A stretch of DNA of 54,354 bases from a virus. Taxonomy: Duplodnaviria; Heunggongvirae; Uroviricota; Caudoviricetes. The DNA lies in IMG/VR virus record IMGVR_UViG_2541047692_000008, positions 1-54,354 of that record; one strand, given 5' to 3'. Shown here one piece after another: positions 5,132 through 44,247 of the stretch (the stretch's first letter is position 1; every line of letters starts with the position of its first letter). The translations under genes and the position numbers were made by a program. The notes under the pieces were generated by a model. That model searched no databases and had not been told where the DNA came from. It saw only the letters and a list, made by a program, of their open reading frames with translations.

Positions 5132-5149
5132 TATGGCATCGCCTCCGGT

Positions 5150-8994: not shown

Positions 8995-9221
8995 CAGATC
9001 CCGCCGTTGCGTGATATTTGTTTTTCGCTTCGCAGCGACACCGGATTTTTAAAGAGCATAAGGTAAGTGCCTTTTTGTGCCTTCCGTTATCTTTTTCCTT
9101 GCGTCTTTGCAAGTATGGCCTTACCTTGTCTGCAAGTTTACAAAATGGAATTTTAAGATCAAGGCTTAAAATACACGTTTTGTGACTTGCATCAAACTTT
9201 TTGAGGTTATAGGGTAGCGAC
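8995..9221. promoter_or_regulatory. Divergent immunity-region control region with candidate operators
   Basis: CTTGC/GCAAG inverted half-sites at 9097-9114 and 9124-9137, ACTTGCA at 9185-9192, plus GTTTACAAAATGGAAT at 9136-9151. Confidence 0.45.
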
Positions 9222-9869
9222 ATGAAAACAAAATGGTATGACTTAGCAAAGCAGCTCATGCGGGCGCAGGGCATGAGCCAGGATTCGCTCGCGGATCGTA
9301 TGGGGATAACTAAAGGCGGCCTGTCACACTGGCTGAACGGTCGCCGAGAGCCAAATCTTGAAGATATTGCGCGGATTATGCGCGAGCTTGGTCGTCGGCA
9401 GTTTACTGTTACACATGATGGCATGGTCATTGATGATTCTGTTTCTAATACACTTCAGGCCGTGCCGCCGCGTGATTTAGGTAGTTACCCGGTTATTGAC
9501 TGGAAGGACACAGTAAACAATATGGATGACGCAAGGCGTTCAGCATTACGACACGTTACGACTAGCGTTATTTGTTCAGATGACAGTTACTGGCTGGTTG
9601 CCAAAGGTGAATCAATGAACGCGCCGCAGGGGTTGAGCATCCCGGCGGGGACGATGATACTTGTGGACCCGCACGCGCCAGCTATTGACGGCAAACTGGT
9701 TATAGCCCAGCTTGAGGAAGGGCAGATACCGACGTTTAAACAGTTGATTATTGATGGAGGTCAAAGGCTTTTACGTTCGCTCAATCCGCTGTATCCGCCA
9801 ATCCCTATGAATCCAGAATCAAAAATTATAGGCGTGGTGGTTGATGCGAAGATCGTAAACCTGCCATAA
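9222..9869 (+). CDS. cI-like repressor (HTH-XRE + S24 LexA-type peptidase)
   Basis: 215 aa; N-terminal HTH (MSQDSLADRMGITKGGLSHWLNGRR), C-terminal S24 signature ...VAKGESMNAPQG...GTMILVDP...GKLVIAQL. Confidence 0.85.
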   Translation: MKTKWYDLAKQLMRAQGMSQDSLADRMGITKGGLSHWLNGRREPNLEDIARIMRELGRRQFTVTHDGMVIDDSVSNTLQAVPPRDLGSYPVIDWKDTVNNMDDARRSALRHVTTSVICSDDSYWLVAKGESMNAPQGLSIPAGTMILVDPHAPAIDGKLVIAQLEEGQIPTFKQLIIDGGQRLLRSLNPLYPPIPMNPESKIIGVVVDAKIVNLP

Positions 9870-16853: not shown

Positions 16854-17608
16854 GCAGGGCTAAACATTGGTTAAATAATTGGCTTAGAAGTTGGGTGGTG
16901 TGGTCGCTGTACGACGGCAGCGGGTACGCCGTTAAAGATTGGGCGGAAGCTGGATATAAGTGCTATTGCTTCAACTATGACGGCGCAAATCACGGAGATT
17001 ATGAAGGCGTTAAAATCATTCATCCAAATATTGAATACGTTAACGTCTGGATTGATAGCCATTTCCTGGTAATGTTCTCCCCTGAATTGTCTGTTTATCC
17101 AGAGCCTGACATTATCCTGGGCTTTCCTCCATGCGACGATCTCGCTGTGTCAGGCGCTCGCTGGTTCGTTGATAAATACAGGAAAGATCCTTGTTTTCAG
17201 AATAGGGCGGCAAGAAACGCAATGTTGGTTGAATCTCTGGCTAACATGTATAACGTGCCGTGGATGGTGGAGAATCCTGTTGGTGTGCTGTCAACGCTAT
17301 GGCGTAAACCGGATTTTATCTTCAATCCTTGCGCTTACGGTGGCTACCTGCCGGAAGATGACAAGCATCCTGCTTTCCCTGATGTTTACCCACCGCGCGA
17401 CGCGTACACGAAGAAAACTTGCATATGGTGCGGCAACGGATTCAGGCAGCCGCTTTTTAGACCTGTAGATCTTAACTCTGGTGATAACCCTGGGTGGGCG
17501 AAAACCGGAGGCAGGACGAAACGAACAAAGATGATCCGCTCACTAACACCGCGTGGCTTTGCCCGTGCTGTATTCCTGGCTAACCATGACCGCGTTTTAT
17601 CGGACTGA
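16850..17608 (+). CDS. Divergent DNA C5-cytosine methyltransferase-like protein
   Basis: Motif I-like LYDGSGYA, motif IV-like GFPPCDD (PC followed by D instead of Q), motif VI-like VENPVG; translationally coupled to the VUT gene. Confidence 0.5.
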   Translation: MSRAKHWLNNWLRSWVVWSLYDGSGYAVKDWAEAGYKCYCFNYDGANHGDYEGVKIIHPNIEYVNVWIDSHFLVMFSPELSVYPEPDIILGFPPCDDLAVSGARWFVDKYRKDPCFQNRAARNAMLVESLANMYNVPWMVENPVGVLSTLWRKPDFIFNPCAYGGYLPEDDKHPAFPDVYPPRDAYTKKTCIWCGNGFRQPLFRPVDLNSGDNPGWAKTGGRTKRTKMIRSLTPRGFARAVFLANHDRVLSD

Positions 17609-17630
17609 AGTTTACAAAATGGCGTCATTG

Positions 17631-17646
17631 CGTGATATGGATCACA
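17631..17646. promoter_or_regulatory. GTGA-N6-TCACA palindrome with GATC (CRP-like site)
   Basis: cgtgatatggatcaca flanked by inverted tttacaaaatgg (17611-17622) and ccattttgtata (17678-17689). Confidence 0.4.
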
Positions 17647-17767
17647 TAATGGCGCTTTTCGCCTTGTTCTGGTGCATCCATTTTGTATACTTCAAGCAAA
17701 CAAAATGCTCTTTAAAAATCCGGCAGCGCTGAAATGCGTAGAAATCACCTGAAAAGGAGAGAGCATT

Positions 17768-17944
17768 ATGTCTTTTGATGATTACCAATGGCATGACGAC
17801 TATGAACGAGAAAGCGTTATGCGTGCAATGTGCAATGTATGCAGCACGAAGAAAGGAGGCTGTAACGAGTGCAACGAATGCTTAGAACATTGGCTAAGGG
17901 CCGGACACGCCGAAAGGCTGAACGAAACAGAGAATCAAAAATAA
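17768..17944 (+). CDS. ninF: NinF-like small cysteine-rich protein (58 aa)
   Basis: Hand-found; aaggagag RBS; ...ERESVMRAMCNVCSTKKGGCNECNEC... parallels lambda NinF pattern; precedes ninG as in lambda. Confidence 0.5.
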   Translation: MSFDDYQWHDDYERESVMRAMCNVCSTKKGGCNECNECLEHWLRAGHAERLNETENQK

Positions 17945-17958
17945 TCGGGGTGGTTTTT

Positions 17959-18564
17959 ATGCAAAACCCTAAAAAACCCATAAGACGCCGTTGCAAATGC
18001 TGCGGCGTTTTTTTTGAGCCTAAATATCACAATCAAACGTGGTGCAGCGATGAATGTCTGGAAGAACTGAAGTTTGACCAGCTATGCCGCGACCGTGAGA
18101 AGGCTATGAAGGCTATGGAGCGGAAGAAACGCCGTGATAGCCAGAGGGAAGAACGCAACCGGAAGCGTAAACAGTTAAATCCGCGTAGTTATTGGATCAA
18201 ACAAGTTCAAAATGTATTTAACGCCTATATTCGCGAACGTGACGCGCGCTTGCCGTGTATATCTTGCGGGACTTACTACGGTGAGCAATGCGGGTGGGAT
18301 GCAGGTCATTACAGGACGGTAGCCGCCGCCGGACACCTTCGCTTCAACGAGGATAATTGCCATAAGCAATGTAGGCACTGCAACCAGACACTAGACGGCA
18401 ACATCGGAGGGTATCGCCCGGCGCTGATTCGAAAAATTGGCCTCGCCAGGGTGGTAGCTCTGGAGAACAACAACGATACGCATAAATGGACGATTGCAGA
18501 ATGTAAGGAGCTAATAAACATCTATCAGGCGAAATTGGACGCCTTAAGGAGAAAGGCAGCATGA
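17959..18564 (+). CDS. ninG: NinG/Rap recombination protein
   Basis: Track ORF starts GTG at 17869; ATG at 17959; RRRCKCCGVFFEP...PRSYWIKQVQNVFNAYIRERDARLPCISCG...WDAGHYRTVAAAGHLRFNEDNCHKQC... closely parallels lambda NinG as recalled. Confidence 0.85.
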   Translation: MQNPKKPIRRRCKCCGVFFEPKYHNQTWCSDECLEELKFDQLCRDREKAMKAMERKKRRDSQREERNRKRKQLNPRSYWIKQVQNVFNAYIRERDARLPCISCGTYYGEQCGWDAGHYRTVAAAGHLRFNEDNCHKQCRHCNQTLDGNIGGYRPALIRKIGLARVVALENNNDTHKWTIAECKELINIYQAKLDALRRKAA

Positions 18565-18968
18565 ATGAATATTCTTTTAGCCTGCCTTACCCGCCATCGA
18601 ATAATCGCTATTACCGACATTCGCGCGGTTTTCACTATATCAGCAAAGTGGGGAAGGAATACAGGGAACAAGTAAGAGACATCATCGAGCTATTAAATTT
18701 AAATATTAACCTACCTTGCCGACTGGCAATTGCCATTTACGCCGCGCCGCCGGATAACCGGATCAGAGATCTGGATAATATCCCTAAATGCCTTTTTGAC
18801 AGCCTTACTTATGCCGGATTCTGGAGGGATGACGGGCAAATTGACTCAATAAAAATTGTCCGCTGCCGGAAGGTAAAAGGCGGACGCTTGTTTATTAAGA
18901 TCCGCGAACGCGGCGACCTACTACCGGATATTGACGAATACGCGACTAATATGTGGGGTGAGCAATGA
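18561..18968 (+). CDS. rusA: RusA Holliday-junction resolvase
   Basis: 135 aa; LPYPPSNNRYYRHSRG...RDLDNIPKCLFDSLTYAGFWRDDGQI...KGGRLFIKI matches RusA family. Confidence 0.85.
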   Translation: MNEYSFSLPYPPSNNRYYRHSRGFHYISKVGKEYREQVRDIIELLNLNINLPCRLAIAIYAAPPDNRIRDLDNIPKCLFDSLTYAGFWRDDGQIDSIKIVRCRKVKGGRLFIKIRERGDLLPDIDEYATNMWGEQ

Positions 18969-19147
18969 AAAACGAAGTTAAAGATCTGCAAATAGATATT
19001 CAGCGCGACGAGCGTGATTTAGAGACGGTCCGACAAATCCAGGCTTTCCACATGCGCGAATTACTTGCGCTGAAAGAGTTCGAAAGAAAGCTGGTGCAAT
19101 CCATTTCTGATCGTAAACGGCTGGCGGCGCGTTATGAGGGCAAATAA
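18965..19147 (+). CDS. Hypothetical coiled-coil protein (60 aa)
   Basis: ORF coupled between rusA and Q-like gene. Confidence 0.45.
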   Translation: MKNEVKDLQIDIQRDERDLETVRQIQAFHMRELLALKEFERKLVQSISDRKRLAARYEGK

Positions 19148-19875
19148 TGAATTTAGAATCCATTCTAAAATTCCACTTTCCTAAATCACCGCGATTATCT
19201 GACGAAAGCCGGGGCACGTCCCCGGACGCTCTTAATACGACGGATGCGCTAACCGCTGCGGGTATGGCGCAATCGCGCGTAGAGCTTGGATATGGCGCTT
19301 TTTTAGGGAAGATGGAACTATCACAAGCCGAAAAACATAGGGCCGTAGTTTTGCTTACAGAGCGTTTAAGGGCTATGGCGAAAGATTACGAATACGTGAT
19401 GGAGTTAAACGAGGATCAGCGCAATGGACTTATTATTCTTGTTGCCGTTTTCGCGTTTCGGGATTATTGCCAGAGTGCGGCGACCGAAAAAGTTTGCCCT
19501 AAGTGCGGCGGCCACGGGCATTTACCAAATCCATATTGCAAATACACATCGACAATTTGTTCGCGGTGCAACGGCAAAGGCTACGTTAAAAACCATTGCC
19601 AACGTTGCAAGGGGCGCGGAGAAGTACCGGATAAAGCAGCCAGTGAAGCGGCGGAAATGCCAGTATTCAAAACGTGCCAGCATTGCGGCGGGCGCGGGTA
19701 CTCGCGTTTCCCGGTAGATCTCGTCCGGCAGGCCGTTAACCAGCTTGTTTTCCCGGTAAGCAGATCAACATGGTGGAAGAAATACCGGGTTTTCTATGAA
19801 GACGCCATAGCGGAGCTATTCAAAGAAGAGGCCCGCGCGGAAAGCGAAATTAAACGAGTGACACGGGGTGAATAA
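19147..19875 (+). CDS. Q-like late antitermination protein candidate with four CxxCxGxG zinc motifs
   Basis: 242 aa; N-terminus MNLESILKFHFPKSPRLSDE resembles Qin/82-type Q as recalled; position after ninG-rusA; CPKCGGHG, CSRCNGKG, CQRCKGRG, CQHCGGRG repeats (DnaJ-like zinc finger pattern). Confidence 0.55.
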   Translation: MNLESILKFHFPKSPRLSDESRGTSPDALNTTDALTAAGMAQSRVELGYGAFLGKMELSQAEKHRAVVLLTERLRAMAKDYEYVMELNEDQRNGLIILVAVFAFRDYCQSAATEKVCPKCGGHGHLPNPYCKYTSTICSRCNGKGYVKNHCQRCKGRGEVPDKAASEAAEMPVFKTCQHCGGRGYSRFPVDLVRQAVNQLVFPVSRSTWWKKYRVFYEDAIAELFKEEARAESEIKRVTRGE

Positions 19876-20078
19876 TGGACAAGTTAGAAATAAACGATCA
19901 GTTTGCCGTTATCTTGTTCGAAGATAAAACGGGCGGCGCGTGGTGTAAGAAAGTAACTGGTGCAGAAGCGCGATTGATATTGGGTATGGCAAGCGCATTA
20001 AACGAAGGCGAATTGCCAGCCGTACCTATTGAGCCTGTTCACATTTACGGGAGGAATAGAGAAGATGAAAATAATTAA
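19875..20078 (+). CDS. Hypothetical small protein (67 aa)
   Basis: First ORF of dense small-gene block; ATG overlaps the Q-like gene stop. Confidence 0.45.
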   Translation: MDKLEINDQFAVILFEDKTGGAWCKKVTGAEARLILGMASALNEGELPAVPIEPVHIYGRNREDENN

Positions 20079-20412
20079 TATCGGGTGGTTATATTGCGAA
20101 AACTGCGACGACGACGGCATGGTTGTTAAGACTGAAAAAGGTTGCGGCTTCTTTTTGTATCAAGGCGATAAGTTTGTTTGTCCGCGATGCGGTGGTCATG
20201 GTGAGATAGAAATTATTGAAGATAGTGCTACAGCACCAGAGCCGGAGCGCATTGTTCTTGACGAAAAAATAAAAATTCATCCTGATTTATTGCAGCAAAT
20301 TATCGATCACATATCGGCAGCAGCAATCTATGCAGATAATAATTATCATCGTAAAATGAACGTAAAACGTGTTCTTGAGCAGTATTTCGAGGGTGGTGAT
20401 AATGAAGCCTAA
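20065..20412 (+). CDS. Hypothetical zinc-ribbon protein (115 aa)
   Basis: ATG at 20065 with gggagg RBS; CENC...CPRCGGHGE motif. Confidence 0.5.
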   Translation: MKIINIGWLYCENCDDDGMVVKTEKGCGFFLYQGDKFVCPRCGGHGEIEIIEDSATAPEPERIVLDEKIKIHPDLLQQIIDHISAAAIYADNNYHRKMNVKRVLEQYFEGGDNEA

Positions 20413-20671
20413 ATTAAAAGAACATGAATTCATGGATCTTGTAAACGGAATAACTGATAAGTCCAGGACTTATTCAAATACACAACAATTAAGGGCTGTG
20501 ATAGTTACTGAATTAAGGAAATATATAGACCTAAGAGATCCGGTCGATGTTATGACGATGGACGAGGCCATCAAGCGCCGTTCGGCTGAATGGTCAGTGA
20601 GTAATACCGGATTAACCGGATATATTGAAGGCTATAACGACTGTTTACAGGATCATAGCGATGGCAAGTAA
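20402..20671 (+). CDS. Hypothetical protein (89 aa)
   Basis: ATG at 20402 (MKPKLKEHEF) with gagggtgg RBS. Confidence 0.45.
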   Translation: MKPKLKEHEFMDLVNGITDKSRTYSNTQQLRAVIVTELRKYIDLRDPVDVMTMDEAIKRRSAEWSVSNTGLTGYIEGYNDCLQDHSDGK

Positions 20672-20969
20672 AGACCTGCATTTGAATCTGAAAGGGGAAT
20701 ACTTCCACGCCATCCGGGCGGGAAAGAAGGTGGAAGAATACAGGCTTTACAATGACTATTGGCGTAAACGCCTGGAGGGGCGGGAATATGAACGCCTGAT
20801 CATTAAGCTGGGGTATCCAGCCAGCCACGAAGCGCACCGGATCATAAACCTGCCTTATTTCGGGTACGAAGTAAAAACTATCACGCATCCATTATTCGGC
20901 CCTGATCCTGTTAAGGTATTCGCAATTAAATGTGATGTGAATTGGATGTTAAGGTGGGGTGAGCAATGA
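20661..20969 (+). CDS. Hypothetical protein (102 aa), possible PUA/ASCH-like fold
   Basis: ATG at 20661 (MASKDLHLNLKGEYFHAIRAGKKVEEYR); fold guess is weak. Confidence 0.45.
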   Translation: MASKDLHLNLKGEYFHAIRAGKKVEEYRLYNDYWRKRLEGREYERLIIKLGYPASHEAHRIINLPYFGYEVKTITHPLFGPDPVKVFAIKCDVNWMLRWGEQ

Positions 20970-21181
20970 AAAAAGCTGGCCTGTCAATCAGTCGTGTGTT
21001 GTGCGGCGACGAAAGCGAGATCCGCATAGAAATTAAATTTAGCACGGGTAAAGAGATAATTCTCTATACGACACCTGAAAACCTGACGCTGGCGCTTACT
21101 GGTAAATCTGAAACGCCGTGCGACGTCCGGTTGCGCAATATTGAGATTAAGGAAATAGGAAGGGTGAGAAATGAAAAGTAA
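20966..21181 (+). CDS. Hypothetical protein (71 aa)
   Basis: Operon context. Confidence 0.45.
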   Translation: MKKAGLSISRVLCGDESEIRIEIKFSTGKEIILYTTPENLTLALTGKSETPCDVRLRNIEIKEIGRVRNEK

Positions 21182-21383
21182 CCGTAAACGCCTGGTAAGG
21201 TCATATGACAAAGCGTTAAAGGTTTTTGATGATCTGCGACACAATAAACGCCAGCGCCGCAAATGGGCGCGAATGCTTGTTGGTGAATGGCATAACGAAG
21301 ATTTCTTTCTGGAAGCGCGGCACATGACGCAAGAAGACGCGGACCAATTAGCTTACGATAACGTTTATTATATGATGTGGTGA
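21171..21383 (+). CDS. Hypothetical basic protein (70 aa)
   Basis: Operon context. Confidence 0.45.
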   Translation: MKSNRKRLVRSYDKALKVFDDLRHNKRQRRKWARMLVGEWHNEDFFLEARHMTQEDADQLAYDNVYYMMW

Positions 21384-21387
21384 CAAT

Positions 21388-21753
21388 ATGCAAATAATCC
21401 TTGATTACCTTTGCCACGCTGCAAATACAATTTTTGGCATGTATCAGCAACAATTCCTCAAAGAATGGGACGACATGCTGAATGATATCCTCGATAAAGG
21501 ATTAATAATGGAGGTTGACGAGCTTACAATCAAATTTAATTATGAGGGTGAAATTTATCTAATTTGGGTCGGGAATAGATGGTATTCATACGGTCATATT
21601 TATTCAATTGGCGATAAATACATTAAACGAAGCCAGGAATTCAGACCGCGCTTCCGAACAATGCGCCGCCTGCATGATCTGCATATGAAGTTATTCGAAG
21701 ATCAGGAAGCACGGGAATTATTCAAAATTTACGGGGATAAATCATGGAGCTAA
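21388..21753 (+). CDS. Hypothetical protein (121 aa)
   Basis: Operon context. Confidence 0.45.
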   Translation: MQIILDYLCHAANTIFGMYQQQFLKEWDDMLNDILDKGLIMEVDELTIKFNYEGEIYLIWVGNRWYSYGHIYSIGDKYIKRSQEFRPRFRTMRRLHDLHMKLFEDQEARELFKIYGDKSWS

Positions 21754-21974
21754 AAATCTGGCAGGCTATCGACGTGGTTGATAACGAATTATCTATGTTT
21801 GTCACTGACGGAAAGCGCGTGGTGATCGCCACATGGACGCGCAACCATGATGATATTACTTTTCGTCGCAAGGCTGCGGAGTGGCTTTTCTCTGATGAAG
21901 GCTACACGATGAATATCTCCCAGCTTGCCAGAATGAAGGATGAAAAGCTGGTAGATAGTTACACGACTGCATAG
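21744..21974 (+). CDS. Hypothetical protein (76 aa)
   Basis: Operon context. Confidence 0.45.
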   Translation: MELKIWQAIDVVDNELSMFVTDGKRVVIATWTRNHDDITFRRKAAEWLFSDEGYTMNISQLARMKDEKLVDSYTTA

Positions 21975-21984
21975 TGGGGCAAAT

Positions 21985-22218
21985 ATGCGTATCTATGAAC
22001 ACAAGCGGGATAAAACCCGCTTTTTTGTTCGTGCTGGCGTGGCGTACCAGTATCACGAATGTGGATATATTGAGGTGCTTGCTTACAACCTGGATTTCGA
22101 ACAAGAAAAAGAATGGTTTGACTTTAAGATTTACCGTAAGCGCAAGCCAACGCGCGACGAACGACACGCTATCCGGGACTTTTTAATCAGCATAGACCAC
22201 TGGGAGGCAGACGAATGA
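21985..22218 (+). CDS. Hypothetical protein (77 aa)
   Basis: Operon context. Confidence 0.45.
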   Translation: MRIYEHKRDKTRFFVRAGVAYQYHECGYIEVLAYNLDFEQEKEWFDFKIYRKRKPTRDERHAIRDFLISIDHWEADE

Positions 22219-22502
22219 GAGCGAAGAAAACAGCAGATCAGAAAGCGTTAGTTATCACTACAACTGATGTGTCGTTATTCACGAAGGGTGAAGAAATAGA
22301 TCTTAAATTACTTTTCGGCATGTTTGAGCCACACGAAAAGCCGTGGTTCGTGCATGAAGACAAACAGGGAAATATGCGCGTAGTAGTGCCGGACAAAAAC
22401 AGCGACATATTTTTTGCTATTCCAGACCCGTTACATGACGGTGAATTGCTGGCGGTATTGTTGATCGCTGATGCTGTTACTTATAAAGGGAAAGAAATAT
22501 GA
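22215..22502 (+). CDS. Hypothetical protein (95 aa)
   Basis: Operon context; overlapping stop/start. Confidence 0.45.
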   Translation: MRAKKTADQKALVITTTDVSLFTKGEEIDLKLLFGMFEPHEKPWFVHEDKQGNMRVVVPDKNSDIFFAIPDPLHDGELLAVLLIADAVTYKGKEI

Positions 22503-22726
22503 AAGTTAAATTCTTGCACGATCACGGCTACCCATCATTAAAACGCGTGGTAGGGGAAACGGTAGACGTTGTTCATTCTGATGATGTGACCTGCGTCATT
22601 TTGGGTAAAGACCTTATCGCTCACGGTGCTGATGATTACTACATTAACCCGGCGTGGTCATATACGTTTAGCCTGGGCGACTTCGTAGGCGATAAGGGGC
22701 GCGGCTTGCAAGTAGTCGAGGGTTAA
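22499..22726 (+). CDS. Hypothetical protein (75 aa)
   Basis: Operon context. Confidence 0.45.
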   Translation: MKVKFLHDHGYPSLKRVVGETVDVVHSDDVTCVILGKDLIAHGADDYYINPAWSYTFSLGDFVGDKGRGLQVVEG

Positions 22727-22730
22727 TATC

Positions 22731-22946
22731 ATGGACGTTTACGAAGATTTATACCTTCAAACAAATACCAGCACTTTTTATTTTTTGAAAAACGGCGTCG
22801 TATATCGCAGCGATGACGGGGTAATAATGAAAGAGTGGCTATTTAAACGCAAAGACCTACTTGATGACCTGGTTTTTGCCGGGATATTCCGTAAACGTCC
22901 GGCTAACCTGGAAGAAGAAATGCTGATCGACGAGGTATTAAAATGA
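22731..22946 (+). CDS. Hypothetical protein (71 aa)
   Basis: Operon context. Confidence 0.45.
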   Translation: MDVYEDLYLQTNTSTFYFLKNGVVYRSDDGVIMKEWLFKRKDLLDDLVFAGIFRKRPANLEEEMLIDEVLK

Positions 22947-23194
22947 AAATCAAGGTAAGTTATTTCAGGGCGAAAGATAAGGCCACTGGACGGATGATGG
23001 CTATTCTGGTTAACGAAGCGAATTATATGTTCTTCCTTCAACCGTGGTGCATTGCCGATCTTAATGACGATTATCGCCGCCACGCTGCGCGTAGTGCTGT
23101 AGGCATGAAAGGCTGGCAGCCGCGCGACATGGAAAACTATAGCGAGTGGAAATTGGTGGTAAAATACACGGTCGATTATAAAGGGGTTTTCTGA
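22943..23194 (+). CDS. Hypothetical protein (83 aa)
   Basis: Operon context. Confidence 0.45.
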   Translation: MKIKVSYFRAKDKATGRMMAILVNEANYMFFLQPWCIADLNDDYRRHAARSAVGMKGWQPRDMENYSEWKLVVKYTVDYKGVF

Positions 23195-23418
23195 TGTTTG
23201 TAAAATGTATAAAGTCTCGTTTCCCTAATCTTTTTGTGGTTGATGAGATTTACGACATAGAAACGCTAATAAGCAGAACTAACGATATTCAGTACATTTA
23301 TGATGAAGATGGCGATCCGTGGTTTTTTTATAACGATCTCAATGGTAGCGGATTCGTTGATGGCGTTGGCGGTAATGGTGTGCCAGTTGCGCTATTTATA
23401 AATGCAAATAAGGAATGA
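23194..23418 (+). CDS. Small protein, tandem paralog 1 of 4
   Basis: Shares pattern [KR]C..S....F..G.IY.V....D..YI..D..G..W.[FY] with the next three ORFs. Confidence 0.5.
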   Translation: MFVKCIKSRFPNLFVVDEIYDIETLISRTNDIQYIYDEDGDPWFFYNDLNGSGFVDGVGGNGVPVALFINANKE

Positions 23419-23630
23419 ATATCATGTATGTTAGATGCACTGAATCAAAATCATCATGCTTTGAGGTTGGCGGAATATATACCGTAGCTCACCTGACTGG
23501 TGATGAACTTAACACCCAATACATTAAAGACGACCACGGAGACGCGTGGCGCTATTGGGATTGTTACGCGCGTGGACACGTTGCCAGCCAGTTCAGTACG
23601 GAACCGATCGCGCGTTTTGTTAAGTGGTGA
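23415..23630 (+). CDS. Small protein, tandem paralog 2 of 4
   Basis: MYVRCTESKSSCFEVGGIYTVAHL...QYIKDDHGDAWRYW; alternative ATG at 23424. Confidence 0.5.
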   Translation: MNIMYVRCTESKSSCFEVGGIYTVAHLTGDELNTQYIKDDHGDAWRYWDCYARGHVASQFSTEPIARFVKW

Positions 23631-23639
23631 GGTAGTGTT

Positions 23640-23879
23640 ATGAGACAGAATCAGAGATACCAGTGCACATACTCACGATGCAGCGCGTTTTTTAAGAATG
23701 GCAAGATCTACGAAGTCGGAGCGGCATTGTTTGACGCAAAGGATCAGGAATATATTCACGCCATTACTGACGACCAGGGCCAGTTATGGCGATTTTATAA
23801 GATGGGATGTGGAACTGCGCTTGTTTATGCGCGGGCTTGTGGTGGTGCTTTTGCTGCGTTTTCGTATGTAGGTGCATAA
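23640..23879 (+). CDS. Small protein, tandem paralog 3 of 4
   Basis: YQCTYSRCSAFFKNGKIYEVGAAL...EYIHAITDDQGQLWRFY. Confidence 0.5.
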   Translation: MRQNQRYQCTYSRCSAFFKNGKIYEVGAALFDAKDQEYIHAITDDQGQLWRFYKMGCGTALVYARACGGAFAAFSYVGA

Positions 23880-24099
23880 AATGATTTTAACGTGTAACGA
23901 ATCGGGATTAGGTTGTTTTGAGGAAGGAGCACAGTACACGGCTGAAAAACCGATGGGATTGTCTCCTAAATTTCCGTTTATCGTCGTGACTGACACTTAC
24001 GGTCACTTATGGTATGCAGGGCCGCTAGGCGGTATTGGTCGTTATGTTGTCCGTAGTTCGGATGGGGCGATGAAGGTTACTTTTACGGAAGAAACGTAA
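23872..24099 (+). CDS. Small protein, tandem paralog 4 of 4
   Basis: MILTCNESGLGCFEEGAQYTAEK...FIVVTDTYGHLWYAG; alternative ATG at 23881. Confidence 0.5.
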   Translation: MHKMILTCNESGLGCFEEGAQYTAEKPMGLSPKFPFIVVTDTYGHLWYAGPLGGIGRYVVRSSDGAMKVTFTEET

Positions 24100-24100
24100 A

Positions 24101-24116
24101 TGTGATCTGTATCACA
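24101..24116. promoter_or_regulatory. TGTGA-N6-TCACA palindrome with GATC (CRP consensus-like)
   Basis: tgtgatctgtatcaca; followed by inverted tacgaaatggca / tgccattttgtta pair (24119-24160). Confidence 0.45.
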
Positions 24117-24197
24117 AGGTTTACGAAATGGCATTGTTTCGACAGTGCCATTTTGTTATAAAGAAGCTGAAGAGAGAACGATGCGGAGGGTAGAAAA

Positions 24198-24476
24198 ATG
24201 AAACGCTGGATTAACAAAGAAGTCGAATCTCGCTTAAACGCATTTTGGGAGATGGTGGAGAAAGAAGACCCAGCACACGCTGCAAGCCCTTACCTGAACA
24301 ACATCGAATATCACTACATTGCAGCAAACAACGCGGAGTTCGAAGAAGAAGGTGGAGCCGACAAGTTCGCACAAAGCAACGCATTCAACAACGCAAACGA
24401 AATGATGATGGCAGTCATCGAACAGGCAGAGGAAGACTACGAATGCAAATCACTTGAATTTGCACGCATGGCATAA
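24198..24476 (+). CDS. Hypothetical acidic protein (92 aa)
   Basis: ggaggg RBS; follows an intergenic regulatory region. Confidence 0.5.
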   Translation: MKRWINKEVESRLNAFWEMVEKEDPAHAASPYLNNIEYHYIAANNAEFEEEGGADKFAQSNAFNNANEMMMAVIEQAEEDYECKSLEFARMA

Positions 24477-24485
24477 GGGGGAACC

Positions 24486-24623
24486 ATGAACGCTAACGCT
24501 AAATATCCGGCCTGGGTTTTCGAACTATACGCCCGCTACTTTGAAGTATTGGCACCAGGTGAAGAAGCATTAAGCATTGACGAATACGCGGAGTGCTTAG
24601 GATTTAGAGGAGGAGAAGAATAA
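24486..24623 (+). CDS. Small hypothetical protein (45 aa)
   Basis: Hand-found; aaggggga RBS; fills gap between flanking ORFs. Confidence 0.35.
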   Translation: MNANAKYPAWVFELYARYFEVLAPGEEALSIDEYAECLGFRGGEE

Positions 24624-24635
24624 ACACGGGGCAGA

Positions 24636-24917
24636 ATGGCCCCATCAAACGGAGTAGAAATTATGGTTGTGATCAGACTATGGCGCGGAGTTAGTAGGCT
24701 TGATGGCACATACAGCCGTGTAATTGAGGTTGTTAACAATAGTCGGTTTTATGAACTGGAATACAGCGAAAAAAGGGAGAATGAATATTTGAGCGAATCG
24801 ACCCCTATGTGGTGCAAAGTGGCTGGCCTTTCTTCACTTATGCGTTGCGGGTTTTATACAGATTATAACACGCTAACAGATGCCGAACTGGTGGCAACTC
24901 TTTACGAAGGAGAATAA
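24636..24917 (+). CDS. Hypothetical protein (93 aa)
   Basis: Operon context; alternative ATG at 24663. Confidence 0.45.
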   Translation: MAPSNGVEIMVVIRLWRGVSRLDGTYSRVIEVVNNSRFYELEYSEKRENEYLSESTPMWCKVAGLSSLMRCGFYTDYNTLTDAELVATLYEGE

Positions 24918-24920
24918 ACA

Positions 24921-25244
24921 ATGACTAAATTTATCAGCGTTAAAGTTTTCCGTGGTACTTTACCGAACGAAGAAAGATTGGGGGAATTCGCCGGGCAACC
25001 TGGCGCATGTTTCCGTGTAGCCACTGAAGACGATGCGCATGTTAAATGCTTCCACGTATCGGAACCGCCTTTTAATGCAGACCATCTTGAAGACCCGGAT
25101 AGAATTAAAAGCCTAGTTTTTGCCTATCTGATGTTCCAGGGTATCGCTAATATGGAAGTGGAATTGCTTGGCGCTGAACTGGCGGCAGAATACAAAATCA
25201 CTAAAGCAGAAAGTGGAGGGTCGGAAATTGAGCGCATCAAATAA
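24921..25244 (+). CDS. Hypothetical protein (107 aa)
   Basis: Operon context. Confidence 0.45.
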   Translation: MTKFISVKVFRGTLPNEERLGEFAGQPGACFRVATEDDAHVKCFHVSEPPFNADHLEDPDRIKSLVFAYLMFQGIANMEVELLGAELAAEYKITKAESGGSEIERIK

Positions 25245-25479
25245 ACCTTACAAAATCCGGTGTAAAGGCGAATACCCTGGGTTTACGATTGGTTGCGAAT
25301 ACCTGGGCCACATTGGGTACGGCCCTTTCGGTGAATTAGGGATGAATACGCTGGACGACGACGGCGACAGCCGGACGCTCGATCTTGATACGGATGACTT
25401 CGAATATATCCCTCCAGTTACTTACCGTGCCGTAGATGATTTCCTGGCTGAACAAGAAGATGATGAAGAGGATGATTAA
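25228..25479 (+). CDS. Hypothetical protein with strongly acidic C-terminus (about 83 aa, TTG start)
   Basis: ggaggg RBS 7 nt before TTG 25228; track ORF begins at ATG 25168 inside the previous gene; C-terminus ...DDDGDSRTLDLDTDDFEY...EQEDDEEDD. Confidence 0.4.
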   Translation: MSASNKPYKIRCKGEYPGFTIGCEYLGHIGYGPFGELGMNTLDDDGDSRTLDLDTDDFEYIPPVTYRAVDDFLAEQEDDEEDD

Positions 25480-25481
25480 CT

Positions 25482-25622
25482 ATGGATGACGAATACGTTA
25501 ACAATTTTATTGTTATGTTTCTTAGTGAAAATTGGCGCATGTTTGAACATTATTGTTTTGAGCGCGGGGAAAATGCTGAAGAAATATATCAATATTTAGG
25601 CGGGGAGAAAGAGGATGATTGA
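25482..25622 (+). CDS. Small hypothetical protein (46 aa)
   Basis: Hand-found; gaggatga RBS. Confidence 0.35.
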   Translation: MDDEYVNNFIVMFLSENWRMFEHYCFERGENAEEIYQYLGGEKEDD

Positions 25623-25809
25623 ATGTCTTATCATTGCTGTGTTTCTCCTTTATATTGCTGGCGCTATCCTGATGTCTTGTTTTATCAAATCTAATGATCT
25701 CGATCGTGGTGGTCTTGAGATTCCTTTCTGGCCTGTAGCGGTGTTTATTGCTCTCGTAGATGCCGCGCGCGCGCAGATCAAAAGGGTTATTAAGGAGCGC
25801 AAGAAATGA
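25615..25809 (+). CDS. Small membrane protein (64 aa)
   Basis: Two hydrophobic helices (IIAVFLLYIAGAILMSCFI; FWPVAVFIALV). Confidence 0.45.
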   Translation: MIECLIIAVFLLYIAGAILMSCFIKSNDLDRGGLEIPFWPVAVFIALVDAARAQIKRVIKERKK

Positions 25810-25988
25810 TTGAAGATGGTATATACGCCGTAACACTAATCGACAAGATGTTTTATCGCATAGAGGGTGGTGATATTCGCGTTTGCGTTAGCGATGGTGA
25901 GTGGGTAGCGCCAATCATCAAGACGACGCGAGAAACAATTAAAATCTGGCTTGATAATGGCGATTTGGTGAAAGTTAGTGATTTGTAG
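25806..25988 (+). CDS. Hypothetical protein (60 aa)
   Basis: Last ORF of the block before the terminator and holin. Confidence 0.45.
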   Translation: MIEDGIYAVTLIDKMFYRIEGGDIRVCVSDGEWVAPIIKTTRETIKIWLDNGDLVKVSDL

Positions 25989-26051
25989 CCATAATCGCGC
26001 ATAAAAAACAAATAGATTAAAATATTTCCTAACAATGCGAAATTGTAATTA

Positions 26052-26075
26052 CCCGGCCACGAGCCGGGTTTTTGC
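26052..26075 (+). terminator. Rho-independent terminator upstream of holin (candidate tR')
   Basis: cccggc-cacga-gccggg followed by tttttgctttgtt; about 20 nt before the holin RBS. Confidence 0.6.
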
Positions 26076-26093
26076 TTTGTTGGAGGAAAATCT

Positions 26094-38404: not shown

Positions 38405-39103
38405 ATGATCCATGTTCGTACAGGACAATTTGCTGCCGTGGTGAACGGTAAGCGCTATGAGTTTAATCCTTGCTTTGCTGCGATGGCTAAAATCGGCAAC
38501 GATAGTGAGCTTGTCGAATATTTCGCACTTATCCACGGCGGCAAATATCCATCACGATTGCCAGCAGATCCAGACCTACGCAATCGCATTCTGGCGCGGT
38601 GTTATGGTGAAATAGTTCAGACATCAATGCACATCCTGAAATGTTGCTCAGACGACGAAATAGGCCCGTTATTGGGCGAATGCTGGTTTACTCCTTCGGG
38701 TAAGTTAAAGTTAAAGCCCGGATTAATGCCGATCGAGGATATCATCACGCTTGCGCAGCACTGCATGTACCACGGTCTTATTGGTGATGGCCCGGAAGAA
38801 GAGTCCGGGGAAATCCCGGAAGGGGAATATAAGCCGACTTTTAACGTCCTTGAATTCGTCTATTCTGCCGTTGCTCACCTGGGCTTGTCAGAATCGGAAG
38901 CATGGAATATGACAATGACCGGATATAGGGCCGCTGTACGCGCTAAAACGCCGCCAGACGAAAGAAACGAGAAAAGCAAGCCAAACATTCACATAAATAA
39001 ACGTGCTTATGACGAGCAAATGGAGGCCGCTAAAAAGGCACTAGAAAGAATGAAAAATCGTGAGCAAGAAAAGCCCGGTAGATCCGGGCGTTTTGCTAAT
39101 TGA
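38405..39103 (+). CDS. Tail assembly chaperone candidate (232 aa)
   Basis: Track ORF 38396..39103 (GTG); ATG 38405 after aaggtga RBS; position between tail tube and tape measure; no frameshift site identified. Confidence 0.4.
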   Translation: MIHVRTGQFAAVVNGKRYEFNPCFAAMAKIGNDSELVEYFALIHGGKYPSRLPADPDLRNRILARCYGEIVQTSMHILKCCSDDEIGPLLGECWFTPSGKLKLKPGLMPIEDIITLAQHCMYHGLIGDGPEEESGEIPEGEYKPTFNVLEFVYSAVAHLGLSESEAWNMTMTGYRAAVRAKTPPDERNEKSKPNIHINKRAYDEQMEAAKKALERMKNREQEKPGRSGRFAN

Positions 39104-39470
39104 AATCTTTAATTGCTGTACCTGGTGAACTGTGTGTGATTGTATTGTATACAGACTTTGCCTTACTGCGATCTTTCCATTCTTTTAGGATGCAGTTATC
39201 AAACTTTGCGATAACCCTTGAAGGGGATAATTCTTCAACATCCATGTAAGTAAATCCTATCGTGCTGGTTACTGAATACCATACGTGATAACTATAATTA
39301 CCGTCATGCTCGATTCTTTGTGGTTCCCCCATTATTTTATTCACTTGCTCACAAGTCATTCCAACTTGCAAATTTTTATCAGCTAACTTAACGAAATCAG
39401 TTGATCTTGCGCACCCTGTAAGAGCTAAAGCCATAACACCAATGAGAACCGCTTTGATTATTTTTTTCAT
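39096..39470 (-). CDS. Lipoprotein (moron, opposite strand to late operon)
   Basis: 124 aa; signal peptide MKKIIKAVLIGVMALALTGC with lipobox LTGC. Confidence 0.65.
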   Translation of the reverse strand: MKKIIKAVLIGVMALALTGCARSTDFVKLADKNLQVGMTCEQVNKIMGEPQRIEHDGNYSYHVWYSVTSTIGFTYMDVEELSPSRVIAKFDNCILKEWKDRSKAKSVYNTITHSSPGTAIKDFN

Positions 39471-39480
39471 GATTTACCCC

Positions 39481-40140
39481 TTAATTCCAGTTGCAAGCGT
39501 TTTTCACTTTGTCGATGTGGTTATAAAGACCATCAATGTTAAACACTGCTTTCTCAATGTCGCCAGCTTCCGGCACTACTTCAATGATGAATTGTTTTTC
39601 GTTAACCAGTTTTTTAATCATTGGGATGGCTTTTTTGCCGTCCCATAATCCAAGAGCTTTATAATTAGTTGACCGCCACCACTCAGTAGCTACAGCTTTG
39701 TGAACGCCGATCCGGTAGTTAATATAAGTAGTGTCCCCGGCGTCAGTTACATGGTGTGACCATGCTACGAACATTTTTGTTTTATTACCCTGGCAAGCGA
39801 TTGTTAATACCGGTTTATTCTTATCCTGTGCCTTCAGTGTCGGGAAAGCATCAAGACTTCCGCTGAATTGTTCTGCTTTCACAAAAAGGAATACGTTTTT
39901 TGCGTCCTGCATATCATCTTTTCTTTCAACTACAAGCCACTGTTTACCAGCATTTTCTTTTTCTAACTGTGCATCGTATGCGGCTTGTTTTGCTTGTTGT
40001 TCTGCAAGCCATTTAGCATTTTTCTCTGCTAATGCTTGTTGCTCTTGATTGGTCACTATAGGCGCTTTTTCATTATCCTCATTGCAACCAACCAGACCCA
40101 ATACCGCCGCAATCATTGCCACTTTTGCTAACCGTTTCAT
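39481..40140 (-). CDS. Lipoprotein (moron, opposite strand to late operon)
   Basis: 219 aa; signal peptide MKRLAKVAMIAAVLGLVGC with lipobox LVGC; Q/A/K-rich linker. Confidence 0.65.
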   Translation of the reverse strand: MKRLAKVAMIAAVLGLVGCNEDNEKAPIVTNQEQQALAEKNAKWLAEQQAKQAAYDAQLEKENAGKQWLVVERKDDMQDAKNVFLFVKAEQFSGSLDAFPTLKAQDKNKPVLTIACQGNKTKMFVAWSHHVTDAGDTTYINYRIGVHKAVATEWWRSTNYKALGLWDGKKAIPMIKKLVNEKQFIIEVVPEAGDIEKAVFNIDGLYNHIDKVKNACNWN

Positions 40141-40187
40141 AACCCACCACGCTAACTTGATTTACTGACCATTCCCTTTAGCTTCCT

Positions 40188-40227
40188 TATACAAAATGGA
40201 GTCGTTGAAGTAAAGCCATTTTGTATA
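40188..40227. promoter_or_regulatory. Perfect 12-bp inverted repeat of dispersed motif (TATACAAAATGG / CCATTTTGTATA)
   Basis: tatacaaaatgg-N16-ccattttgtata immediately upstream of tape measure gene, followed by cagatcaca. Confidence 0.5.
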
Positions 40228-40267
40228 AAATAGATACACAGATCACATTTTTGCATGAGGTTAAATC

Positions 40268-42696: not shown

Positions 42697-42951
42697 TCAC
42701 TTATGAGTGCCTTTCACGCCACATAACTTGTTATAGGCATGGTGCTCAACAATTAACCAAACCTTCAAATCTTCGCTAAACAGCCTCCAATCAAGATTGA
42801 TATCCATTTTGTATCCGTAACCGTCGCGTAACTTTTTGGGGTAAACTTCTTTTCTCAGAAAGGCTTTAAGTAATTCCTTACCTTTCTTGATGATCCGGTC
42901 CTGTGCGTTTTTCTGTGCTTTCAGATTTCTGTCAATCGCTACCAGTTTCAT
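42697..42951 (-). CDS. Hypothetical protein (84 aa), possible RelE/YafQ-like toxin
   Basis: C-terminus ...DWRLFSEDLKVWLIVEHHAYNKLCGVKGTHK loosely resembles YafQ/RelE C-terminal pattern; second gene of a two-gene minus-strand cassette. Confidence 0.4.
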   Translation of the reverse strand: MKLVAIDRNLKAQKNAQDRIIKKGKELLKAFLRKEVYPKKLRDGYGYKMDINLDWRLFSEDLKVWLIVEHHAYNKLCGVKGTHK

Positions 42952-42968
42952 AACTCACCCCATCATCC

Positions 42969-43124
42969 TTAGTTAAGTGCCTTCAGGAAGAAGTCCCGGT
43001 ATTCATCTTCTTTCGCATTCATCATGAATTGACCGTATTTGAATGCGTCGTCGAAACCCTTAACGATTGCTATTTCCACTTGTTCGAATGCGTTATTTAG
43101 CATTACTACTACATAGCGTTTCAT
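42969..43124 (-). CDS. Small protein (51 aa), upstream partner of 42697..42951
   Basis: Hand-found; strong RBS aaggagg; MKRYVVVMLNNAFEQVEIAIVKGFDDAFKYGQFMMNAKEDEYRDFFLKALN. Confidence 0.4.
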   Translation of the reverse strand: MKRYVVVMLNNAFEQVEIAIVKGFDDAFKYGQFMMNAKEDEYRDFFLKALN

Positions 43125-43998: not shown

Positions 43999-44247
43999 CT
44001 ATAAGTTATCACGCAGATAATTAACGCCCTTATCAGTGACGAATGAATGGTTAACCTGGTTTTCATCCGTCATGATGATGAATAACTTTTCATGTAGGTA
44101 TTTCGCTTTCGGGTACAGCGTTAAACAGACCTGGTACAGTATCCCGCGCTCAATCAGCAAATCAATAAATTCGTGTTCATGATAACCGATGAGGCGGGCG
44201 GCCTGTTTCAACGTGTACACATAATCACCGTGATTGCGCCGCCCCAT
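43999..44247 (-). CDS. Putative HTH DNA-binding protein (82 aa)
   Basis: YTLKQAARLIGYHEHEFIDLLIERG helix-turn-helix-like segment; last gene of three-gene minus-strand cassette. Confidence 0.5.
   Translation of the reverse strand: MGRRNHGDYVYTLKQAARLIGYHEHEFIDLLIERGILYQVCLTLYPKAKYLHEKLFIIMTDENQVNHSFVTDKGVNYLRDNL

Follow-up and report, generated by a model that had tools for sequence, protein, structure and literature searches.

The nin region of phage lambda (ninA-ninI, between ren and Q) is a dense run of co-oriented, coupled small genes that is N-antiterminated, delayed-early and largely dispensable. In Shiga-toxin (Stx) phages, kilobases of cargo (stx and its neighbours) lie between Q and the lysis genes. 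This cargo stands after the promoter pR' and the terminator tR' and is Q-dependent (PMC8065619). Lambdoid morons, one or two genes in size, carry their own promoter and terminator. The closest described phages are the mEpimmI group, Nus-dependent non-lambdoid temperate coliphages from human faeces, in which about half of the genes are 'flexible' and sited in variable regions and the N-like antiterminator Gp17 acts at nutL, nutR1 and nutR2 (PMC11893012). Here we analyse a viral DNA of 54,354 bp (IMG/VR record IMGVR_UViG_2541047692_000008, hereafter the window), in which 25 small genes (o01 to o25, 19875-25988, all on the + strand) separate the gene for the antiterminator Q from the lysis cassette.

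Judged by its length, which lies in the mEpimmI range of about 52-57 kb, by its synteny with mEp021 and by its nucleotide similarity to members of the group, the window is the genome of a mEp021-like ("mEpimmI") temperate coliphage. We favour, with moderate confidence, the reading that the block of 25 genes is a flexible accessory module of this phage, expressed early and ahead of the late promoter and encoding small host-interaction proteins. The block would thus sit between the Q gene and the site at which Q itself acts, with the late promoter, its pause element and the terminator t5 packed into a conserved 87-bp leader directly before the holin gene.

Organization of the block and its flanks

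The Q gene at the left flank (19147..19875, +) belongs to the lambda Q family (PF03589, E 4.8e-30; PHROG 127; lambda Q structure PDB 7ubm, E 8e-37). Its product aligns end to end with lambda Q, but an extra zinc-ribbon segment, inserted at about residues 115-149, adds two further CxxCxGxG zinc knuckles; a VCPxCGGHG knuckle is common to Q and the block gene o02. Upstream of Q, at 17768-18968, lie NinF-, NinG- and RusA-type genes. The Q stop codon and the o01 start overlap in ATGA, and from there 25 consecutive co-oriented open reading frames (ORFs) of 45-121 aa follow, once internal ATG and TTG starts are applied. Coding density of the block is 97.5%, and a purine-rich Shine-Dalgarno-like motif stands 5' of most gene starts. 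Among the 26 junctions from Q to the holin gene, 16 are overlaps of 1-17 nt and another 8 leave 2-12 nt between the genes; the remaining two are wider, with 98 nt at 24100-24197 and 105 nt ahead of the holin. The lysis cassette (26094..27245, +) consists of an HP1-type holin (26094-26294, +; Pfam-level profile match), a lysozyme and Rz with embedded Rz1, according to ORF calls and the annotation of relatives. Terminator t5 (26051..26075, +) precedes it: a hairpin at 26051-26069 with a 7-bp G+C stem and a 5-nt loop (-18 kcal/mol, z-score -4.4), followed by a U tract. The same hairpin is TERM_5 in the mEp021 record, and the legend to Fig. 7 of PMC11893012 counts t5 among the experimentally demonstrated terminators. 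An initial annotation, made from the letters alone, had described some 25 tightly packed co-oriented small genes between a Q-like gene and a terminator directly before the holin, and had called this placement unusual compared with lambda; all of these points were borne out. In lambda, 77 bp separate the end of Q from the pR' start site, and 677 bp separate it from S.

The block is real and conserved and not a chance pattern. In a comparison with 38 related loci, 24 ORFs had informative pairs, and the median ratio of non-synonymous to synonymous substitution rates (dN/dS) of every one of them fell within 0.05-0.42; o18 had no such pairs. PHROG families were matched by 23 of the 25 products, every one of them of 'unknown function', and AlphaFold (AF2) models were confident for two block proteins.

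A promoter-like leader after the block

The leader (26007..26093, +) is almost invariant in alignments of 9 and of 24 unique sequences from the 38 related loci, and its 87 bp are the only fully conserved non-coding DNA of the region; left of 26006 the related loci carry several unrelated versions of the DNA. It reads TAAAAT (26018-23), atttcct, AACAAT (26031-36) and GCG, then the t5 hairpin, whose stem is invariant and whose loop varies in the 24 unique sequences, and then the ribosome-binding site GGAGG. The lambda record gives pR' as TTGACT-17-TAAATT-tgactc-AACGAT-GGG, and AACGAT is the sigma-dependent pause element of lambda, at +1 to +6 (PMC9388147). The order TAAAAT-N7-AACAAT plus terminator in the leader therefore parallels TAAATT-N6-AACGAT in lambda, with TAAAAT as candidate -10 hexamer and AACAAT as candidate pause element; the implied leader RNA is about 45 nt. 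Just upstream of the -10 hexamer stands a conserved AAACAAAyAGAT, where lambda carries its Q-binding element; the candidate element in the window is AAACAAATAGAT (26007-17, +). The leader thus probably contains a Q-responsive promoter, a pause site and a terminator, with the block upstream of them.

Because the leader parallels lambda pR' and ends in t5, after the block, the block is probably delayed-early. An accessory early block also fits best since the overlap of Q and o01 leaves no room for a promoter and since the promoter-like leader and the terminator follow the block; at the block start, after Q, no promoter-like site or conserved non-coding DNA stands out. The 25 genes would belong to a delayed-early rightward operon of nutR2, ninF/ninG/rusA, Q and the block, read by RNA polymerase that Gp17 has modified and translated by coupling. 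That an N-antiterminated polymerase transcribes the block we infer from its position downstream of nutR2 and the lack of an intervening promoter. An extended and highly stable inverted repeat at 17606-17694 (-37 kcal/mol, z-score -6.0), which follows a cytosine methyltransferase gene, probably corresponds to t4/nutR2 on the published map of mEp021. This repeat encloses a CRP-like site and lies just upstream of the boxA-like sequence TGCTCTTTAA (17707).

The arrangement differs from both lambdoid precedents. The lambda nin region is upstream of Q, whereas the block starts at the Q stop codon and lies downstream; the two share no sequence relatives, and the gene content of the block is far more variable. 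In Stx phages the cargo comes after pR'/tR', whereas in the window the pR'-like leader and the terminator come after the cargo.

A flexible region shared by the mEp phages

Homologous blocks lie between Q and the holin gene in mEp010, mEp044, mEp554, mEp013, mEp021, mEp515, MagusPhagus and Escherichia coli prophages. Megablast matched the block to these seven phages at 84-86% identity over 19-67% of its length; phage matches were confined to the mEp phages and MagusPhagus, and prophages with matches occurred in 35 of 5426 complete E. coli genomes. The neighbouring NinG, RusA, Q, holin, lysozyme and Rz proteins are 78-100% identical to those of relatives and in the same order, with the exception of one holin (57%, N25). 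The search for a Q gene beside a similar leader gave non-mEp Q proteins of less than 38% identity at best, and neither the leader nor a close Q turned up when one genome of each bacterial species was scanned.

In relatives, such a block is always present between Q and the lysis genes. In the 16 related loci that have both ends, the interval from Q to the leader ranges from 1.9 kb (mEp021) to 7.1 kb, so that the 6.1 kb of the window are of typical size; mEp021 has 8 genes here and the window 25. The working phage mEp021 is without the internal cassette described below and retains the leader. Relatives share the gene order of the block, and their gene content is mosaic. Genes o09, o11, o12 and o13 form a core, as no relative with that region covered is without any of them; o08, found in 8 of 8 annotated relatives, is near-core. 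Genes o19, o21, o22, o24 and o25 are common among relatives (o22 was present in 34 of the related loci searched), and the remaining genes come and go; the first genes after Q vary although Q is conserved. Two related prophage proteins are in-frame fusions, one of an o16-like N-terminus to an o21-like C-terminus and one of an o14-like N-terminus to an acidic o22-like tail (P0065, P0066); therefore, deletions join genes within the array. As comparison of these sequences shows, the block evolves as genes are gained, lost, duplicated in tandem or fused in frame, while a core stays conserved. Outside the mEp group, only o04, o05, o06 and o18 have relatives among GenBank phages (E <= 1e-5).

By these comparisons the block is a family-wide flexible region of the published mEpimmI phages and not peculiar to the window sequence. 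The locus is the same as a variable region of that work, mEp021 gp41 being the counterpart of o12, and its genes were treated there as hypothetical or flexible, without analysis of block transcription, cassette or folds (PMC11893012). The locus is thus already in published genomes as 'hypothetical proteins'. Its kind is a familiar phage accessory region, expected in temperate phages and in that respect not surprising; new here are the junction cassette, the Gp54-like array and the position of the block between Q and the site at which Q presumably acts.

An internal junction cassette

The 98-nt gap at 24100-24197 contains an element that is conserved in 27 related loci though the flanking genes differ. 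Read from the left, it contains the CRP-type palindrome TGTGATCTGTATCACA, flanked by AAATGTGATCT (24101..24116), which is the only exact TGTGA-N6-TCACA in the 54 kb; its left half GTGATCT is kept in all 20 unique versions among relatives. A hairpin followed by TTTTGTT comes next (24123..24156, +; -19.6 kcal/mol, z-score -6.5) and resembles an intrinsic terminator. A/G changes across the 27 loci preserve its pairing, and ARNold terminators are annotated at this position in mEp010 and mEp044. The hairpin overlaps a promoter-like sequence, here named P_int (24134..24162, +), with a candidate -35 TTGTTT, a 17-nt spacer and TGn plus a -10 TATAAA. The centre of the CRP palindrome would lie at about -60.5 relative to P_int.

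On this sequence reading the cassette divides the block into sub-block A (o01-o17, 17 genes) and sub-block B (o18-o25, 8 genes, 24198-25988). The cassette may stop upstream transcription and start a weak, possibly CRP-assisted transcript: the hairpin in 24100-24170 would end the first 17 genes, and a weak sigma-70 promoter with a CRP site would serve the last 8, which would then use their own promoter rather than Q. Sub-block B would be bounded, much like a moron operon, by the promoter-like 24134-24162 and by t5 at 26051-26075. Lambdoid morons are likewise bounded by promoter and terminator, but they are one or two genes in size, whereas sub-block B has eight coupled genes, and the cassette is absent in some relatives. 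The cassette was also considered as the late promoter and rejected, as mEp021 and other small-block relatives are without it and mEp021 keeps Q, the leader and t5.

A second, paralogous cassette occupies 40160-40250(-). It precedes, by 76 nt, two lipoprotein genes that are oriented against the tail genes, and 16 relatives retain it in this position; mEp013 shares it without the lipoprotein genes. The distance from TGTGA to the -10-like hexamer is 56 nt in both. The two copies, of roughly 90 nt (24097-24170 and 40160-40250(-)), share the pattern AAATGTGATCT..TACrAAATGGC..CCATTTTGT..ATAAaGAAGCT; both are conserved across the phage group, and the cargo behind them is variable. Within sub-block A, a near-consensus sigma-70 promoter TTTACA-18-TATAAT (11/12 matches) reads at 23175-23204(-) antisense into o13 and the core genes; lying in coding sequence at the o13/o14 junction, it may be due to chance. 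An Rfam search of the window returned no hit at gathering score, and for 23900-26300 a limit as loose as E 5 brought no meaningful one.

Predicted products of the block

In agreement with the initial annotation, no product belongs to a recognised family: none of the 25 matched Pfam at threshold, PADLOC-DB defence models at E <= 0.01 or PDB sequences. Nor are these ordinary nin genes; the homology check found no Pfam or PHROG family of NinB, NinE, NinF, NinG, NinH, NinI or Rap/RusA among the 25, and the NinF-, NinG- and RusA-type genes of this phage are those upstream of Q. The three protein features that the annotation had singled out were recovered as well, namely the zinc-ribbon cysteine pairs of o02, the hydrophobic segments of o24 and the acidic tail of o22, which it had likened to DNA mimics as a possibility. 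An isoelectric point below 6 was calculated for 19 of the 25 products.

Sub-block A opens with o01 (19875..20078, 67 aa, acidic; phrog_35000, dN/dS 0.07) and o02 (20065..20412, 115 aa, dN/dS 0.19), both flexible. The N-terminus of o02 is a Cys4 zinc ribbon (CENC...CPRCGGHG) with a sub-threshold match to the DnaJ zinc finger (DnaJ_CXXCXGXG). After o03 (20402..20671, 89 aa; phrog_29262, dN/dS 0.22) comes o04 (20661..20969, 102 aa, basic; phrog_625), a putative RNA-binding protein. Its homologues, 80-99% identical, are named ASCH domain or RNA-binding protein by the Prokaryotic Genome Annotation Pipeline (PGAP). Membership in the ASCH family is likely but weakly supported, as the match to PF04266 (E 0.021, 15.9 bits against a cut-off of 21.2) covers the N-terminal 25 positions only. 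Relatives of o04 and of o05 (20966..21181, 71 aa; phrog_1222, dN/dS 0.05) are found beside EaA/Ea22, in the accessory early-left part of Stx, HK022 and P22-like phages; homologues of o05 also occur in virulent 44-kb siphophages. The basic o06 (21171..21383, 70 aa; phrog_8758, dN/dS 0.15) has an Arg-rich segment, RHNKRQRRKWAR, and one relative among GenBank phages outside the mEp group.

Next follow o07 (21388..21753, 121 aa; phrog_16975, dN/dS 0.10), the near-core o08 (21744..21974, 76 aa, mEp021 gp38; phrog_38280, dN/dS 0.12) and the core genes, which are o09 (21985..22218, 77 aa, mEp021 gp39; phrog_30442, dN/dS 0.07), o11 (22499..22726, 75 aa, mEp021 gp40; phrog_5009, dN/dS 0.07), o12 (22731..22946, 71 aa) and the basic o13 (22943..23194, 83 aa; phrog_38609, dN/dS 0.08). 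Between o09 and o11 stands the flexible o10 (22215..22502, 95 aa; phrog_33175), found in 4 of 8 relatives. The product of o12 is a 93% homologue of mEp021 gp41, a protein that all 48 published genomes conserve, that mass spectrometry detected in virions and that has been suggested to be a RegA-like translational repressor (PMC11893012); fold similarity of o12 to RegA was not supported.

The last four genes of sub-block A are tandem paralogues (pairwise BLASTP E 3e-7 to 5e-5; shared PHROG 31142): o14 (23194..23418, 74 aa; BLASTP to o15 E 3e-7, phrog_31142), o15 (23415..23630, 71 aa), the modelled member, o16 (23640..23879, 79 aa), assigned by BLASTP, PHROG and the family hidden Markov model (HMM), and o17 (23872..24099, 75 aa, GTG start with an alternative ATG at 23881; BLASTP to o15 E 5e-5, family HMM). 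The HMM match of o14 (E 8e-35) is circular, as o14 is in the seed alignment. The family is tiny: o15 has 7 clusters among 5.8 billion proteins, and a search of 1.84 billion representatives with the o14-o17 profile brought up roughly a dozen relatives of small size. Its matches to long Reg_prop/NHL propeller proteins were set aside as a shared D..G..W blade-like motif and not homology, and o22 was rejected as a fifth member (HMM E about 1). The predicted fold is a six-stranded barrel with a prominent beta1-beta2 loop, resembling Gp54 of phage Bas11 (PDB 9axb). Gp54 is a non-essential protein of 66 aa and a direct activator of the defence protein CapRel-SJ46, and its barrel topology is reported to be very rare (PMC11578894). 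The temperate phage of the window has four diverged members of the o14-o17 family in tandem, and identity to Gp54 is 11%. Sequence homology to Gp54 was not detected, as the family profile met no PDB sequence at E <= 0.79 and 9axb was absent at E up to 10. In a Foldseek search of viral models, numerous uncharacterised proteins from T1-like and related siphophages shared this fold, with template modelling (TM) scores of 0.7-0.83.

Sub-block B starts with the acidic o18 (24198..24476, 92 aa; phrog_7287), whose homologues in rV5-like virulent myophages are 54-61% identical. The relative in rV5, ORF167 (54% identical), lies within a cluster of small ORFs directly downstream of an annotated sigma70-type promoter. 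The run ORF165-177 of rV5 consists, like the block, of small genes of unknown function, but each gene or pair is annotated there with its own host-type promoter and only o18 is shared. The remaining genes are o19 (24486..24623, 45 aa, acidic; phrog_22232, dN/dS 0.09), o20 (24636..24917, 93 aa; phrog_32200), o21 (24921..25244, 107 aa; phrog_23107, dN/dS 0.33), o22, o23 (25482..25622, 46 aa, acidic; phrog_15754), o24 and o25 (25806..25988, 60 aa; phrog_15318, dN/dS 0.21), the last gene of the block. Gene o22 (25228..25479, 83 aa, TTG start, dN/dS 0.09) aligns with phrog_25234 from residue 21 of the longer ORF; its product has a net charge of -16 and a poly-acidic C-terminus, EQEDDEEDD. The product of o24 (25615..25809, 64 aa; phrog_10061, grand average of hydropathy 0.83) is the only one with hydropathy windows of at least 1.6 and appears to be a small membrane protein, hydrophobic at about residues 1-24 and 33-51.

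Other features of the window

A CI-like repressor (HTH_3 and Peptidase_S24) is encoded at 9222-9869 on the + strand, together with the long rightward gene run, whereas cI and cro of lambda are divergent. CRP-like palindromes (TGTGA-N6-TCACA, one mismatch allowed) number seven in the window, at 9181, 12444, 14051, 17631, 24101, 44869 and 52220, against 1.4 expected, and none of 100 shuffles reached seven. On the ORF map all seven lie at gene junctions, 34-137 nt upstream of + strand starts, including that of the CI-like repressor gene; they may be bound by host CRP or else serve a phage protein as operators. The 14-mer GTTTACRAAATGGC is present in 11 copies when up to 2 mismatches are allowed, against 1.2 expected (0 of 100 shuffles), at 5148, 9136, 9979, 15073, 17610, 17677(-), 24119, 32193, 40215(-), 43194(-) and 44787(-), and frequently makes up one arm of an inverted repeat where modules join.

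The lipoprotein genes behind the second cassette (39096-40140, -) both have lipoboxes. The larger product belongs to the type VI secretion VasI family (PF11319, E 1.2e-15), and the smaller has sub-threshold matches to DUF7738 and a BamE domain. They were compared with the tested lipoproteins Lpp021 and Lpp010, and this identification was dropped, as megablast gave these genes no nucleotide-level match in any phage record, the deposited mEp phages included. Also set against the tail genes is a ParE-like toxin gene (42697-43124, -; PF24732, E 9e-12), which probably forms a toxin-antitoxin pair with the 51-aa ORF that directly precedes it. A protein of 82 aa with a KilAC antirepressor domain (PF03374, E 1e-6; 43999-44247, -) is encoded in a minus-strand island among the tail genes.

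Proposed role and alternative explanations

In the reading that we favour, the products, which are small, mostly acidic and free of enzyme domains, would bind host or phage macromolecules in takeover, counter-defence or regulation; alternatively, they may be sensed by host defence. The set would comprise four Gp54(Bas11)-like barrels, an ASCH-like protein, one with a zinc ribbon, a small membrane protein and, from the core, a protein associated with virions. The initial annotation had compared the block with accessory early genes or late-expressed morons. The first comparison fits best, given the Q/o01 overlap and the leader after the block; a late moron does not fit the block as a whole, and only the last 8 genes are moron-like.

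Several observations weigh against an early accessory module. Firstly, the -35 of the leader is poor in the window phage (TCGCGC; TTGTAG in other phages), and a consensus scan skipped the proposed late promoter and called GTGAAA-16-CATAAT at 25968-25995, a sequence that exists in one variant only. At 95.4%, the leader is also conserved no more strongly than the holin gene beside it (96.5%), so that its conservation alone is no proof of a regulatory role. Secondly, P_int lacks the usual final T in its -10 and matches the -35 consensus at 3 of 6 positions, and the CRP-type palindrome could be a site for a phage protein, given seven near-matches at gene junctions genome-wide. Thirdly, the link to Gp54 consists of a predicted model and 11% identity, without sequence-profile support. 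The core genes moreover include a virion-detected protein, for which a structural or late role fits less awkwardly than an early one. All promoters and all product functions considered here are predictions.

A more specific and rather doubtful form of this proposal is an arms-race island, in which the Gp54-like barrels and acidic proteins would inhibit or decoy host immune sensors (e.g., toxin-antitoxin fusions of the CapRel type) early, before Q acts, and the last eight genes would be a cAMP-CRP operon expressed in the prophage too. If so, the junction cassette, with its CRP site, hairpin and promoter, would be a portable plug for variable cargo at several positions.

Among the competing explanations, the one that survives best, though we consider it improbable, is that o08, o09, o11, o12 and o13 are needed regulators or assembly or DNA-handling factors and the flexible genes mere passengers. 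These genes occur in every relative with the locus covered, including the minimal block of mEp021, and are under strong purifying selection (dN/dS 0.05-0.12), and the virion-detected gp41 is found in all 48 published genomes. Yet the core resembles no known replication, packaging or morphogenesis family, and the explanation would cover at most 5 of the 25 genes.

Slightly less probable still is a lysogenic-conversion or prophage-defence island, with the block or its last 8 genes expressed in the prophage and of benefit to the host, e.g., by excluding other phages. The position of sub-block B between the promoter-like cassette and t5 would suit such a role, as would the presence of the same cassette before lipoprotein genes of a kind shown to exclude phages in the mEp group, and the CRP core suggests control by host physiology. 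The PADLOC search was negative for all 25 products, however, and the proteins, at 45-107 aa, have no enzymatic or sensor domains; the relatives of o18 are in strictly virulent rV5-like phages, where a role in benefiting lysogens is impossible; and the strength of the promoter is doubtful, while the first 17 genes have none of their own.

The least likely of these three is late cargo as in stx, with a late promoter at or before the block start, Q-dependent genes and t5 as a second terminator that Q-modified polymerase ignores; we give it little weight. The block does occupy the site of late-expressed cargo in Stx phages, between Q and the lysis genes, and the finding of gp41 in virions suits late expression. 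But the Q stop overlaps the o01 start with nothing conserved and non-coding there, and the first block genes differ among relatives despite the conserved Q. For Q to act, a pause site close to the promoter is required, and a lambda-like layout of promoter, pause element and terminator occurs only at 26018-26075, in the leader after the block. The internal terminator-like hairpin would also be pointless, though not harmful, in a Q-read operon.

Finally, the view that the ORFs are mostly spurious, in non-coding or decaying DNA, deserves virtually no credence: the products do lack recognised domains and many are confined to one phage lineage (as in the tiny o15 family), but it is already refuted because of the substitution pattern, with dN/dS well under 1 in 24 of 25 ORFs (o18 giving no informative pairs), and the coding density, ribosome-binding-site motifs, start/stop overlaps, 23 PHROG matches and two confident AF2 models argue against it as well.

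Implications for the mEp phages

Small early phage genes of unknown function are a source of many inhibitors and triggers of bacterial immunity. The block provides 25 conserved candidates from phages that are common in the human gut, including a four-copy array of a predicted fold that resembles the CapRel trigger Gp54, its one characterised case so far. It also sets the lambda-type Q gene 2-7 kb away from its presumed loading site, compared with the 77 bp of lambda. If the leader is the pR' of these phages, the mEp phages would be a natural test of whether Q must be made near its site.

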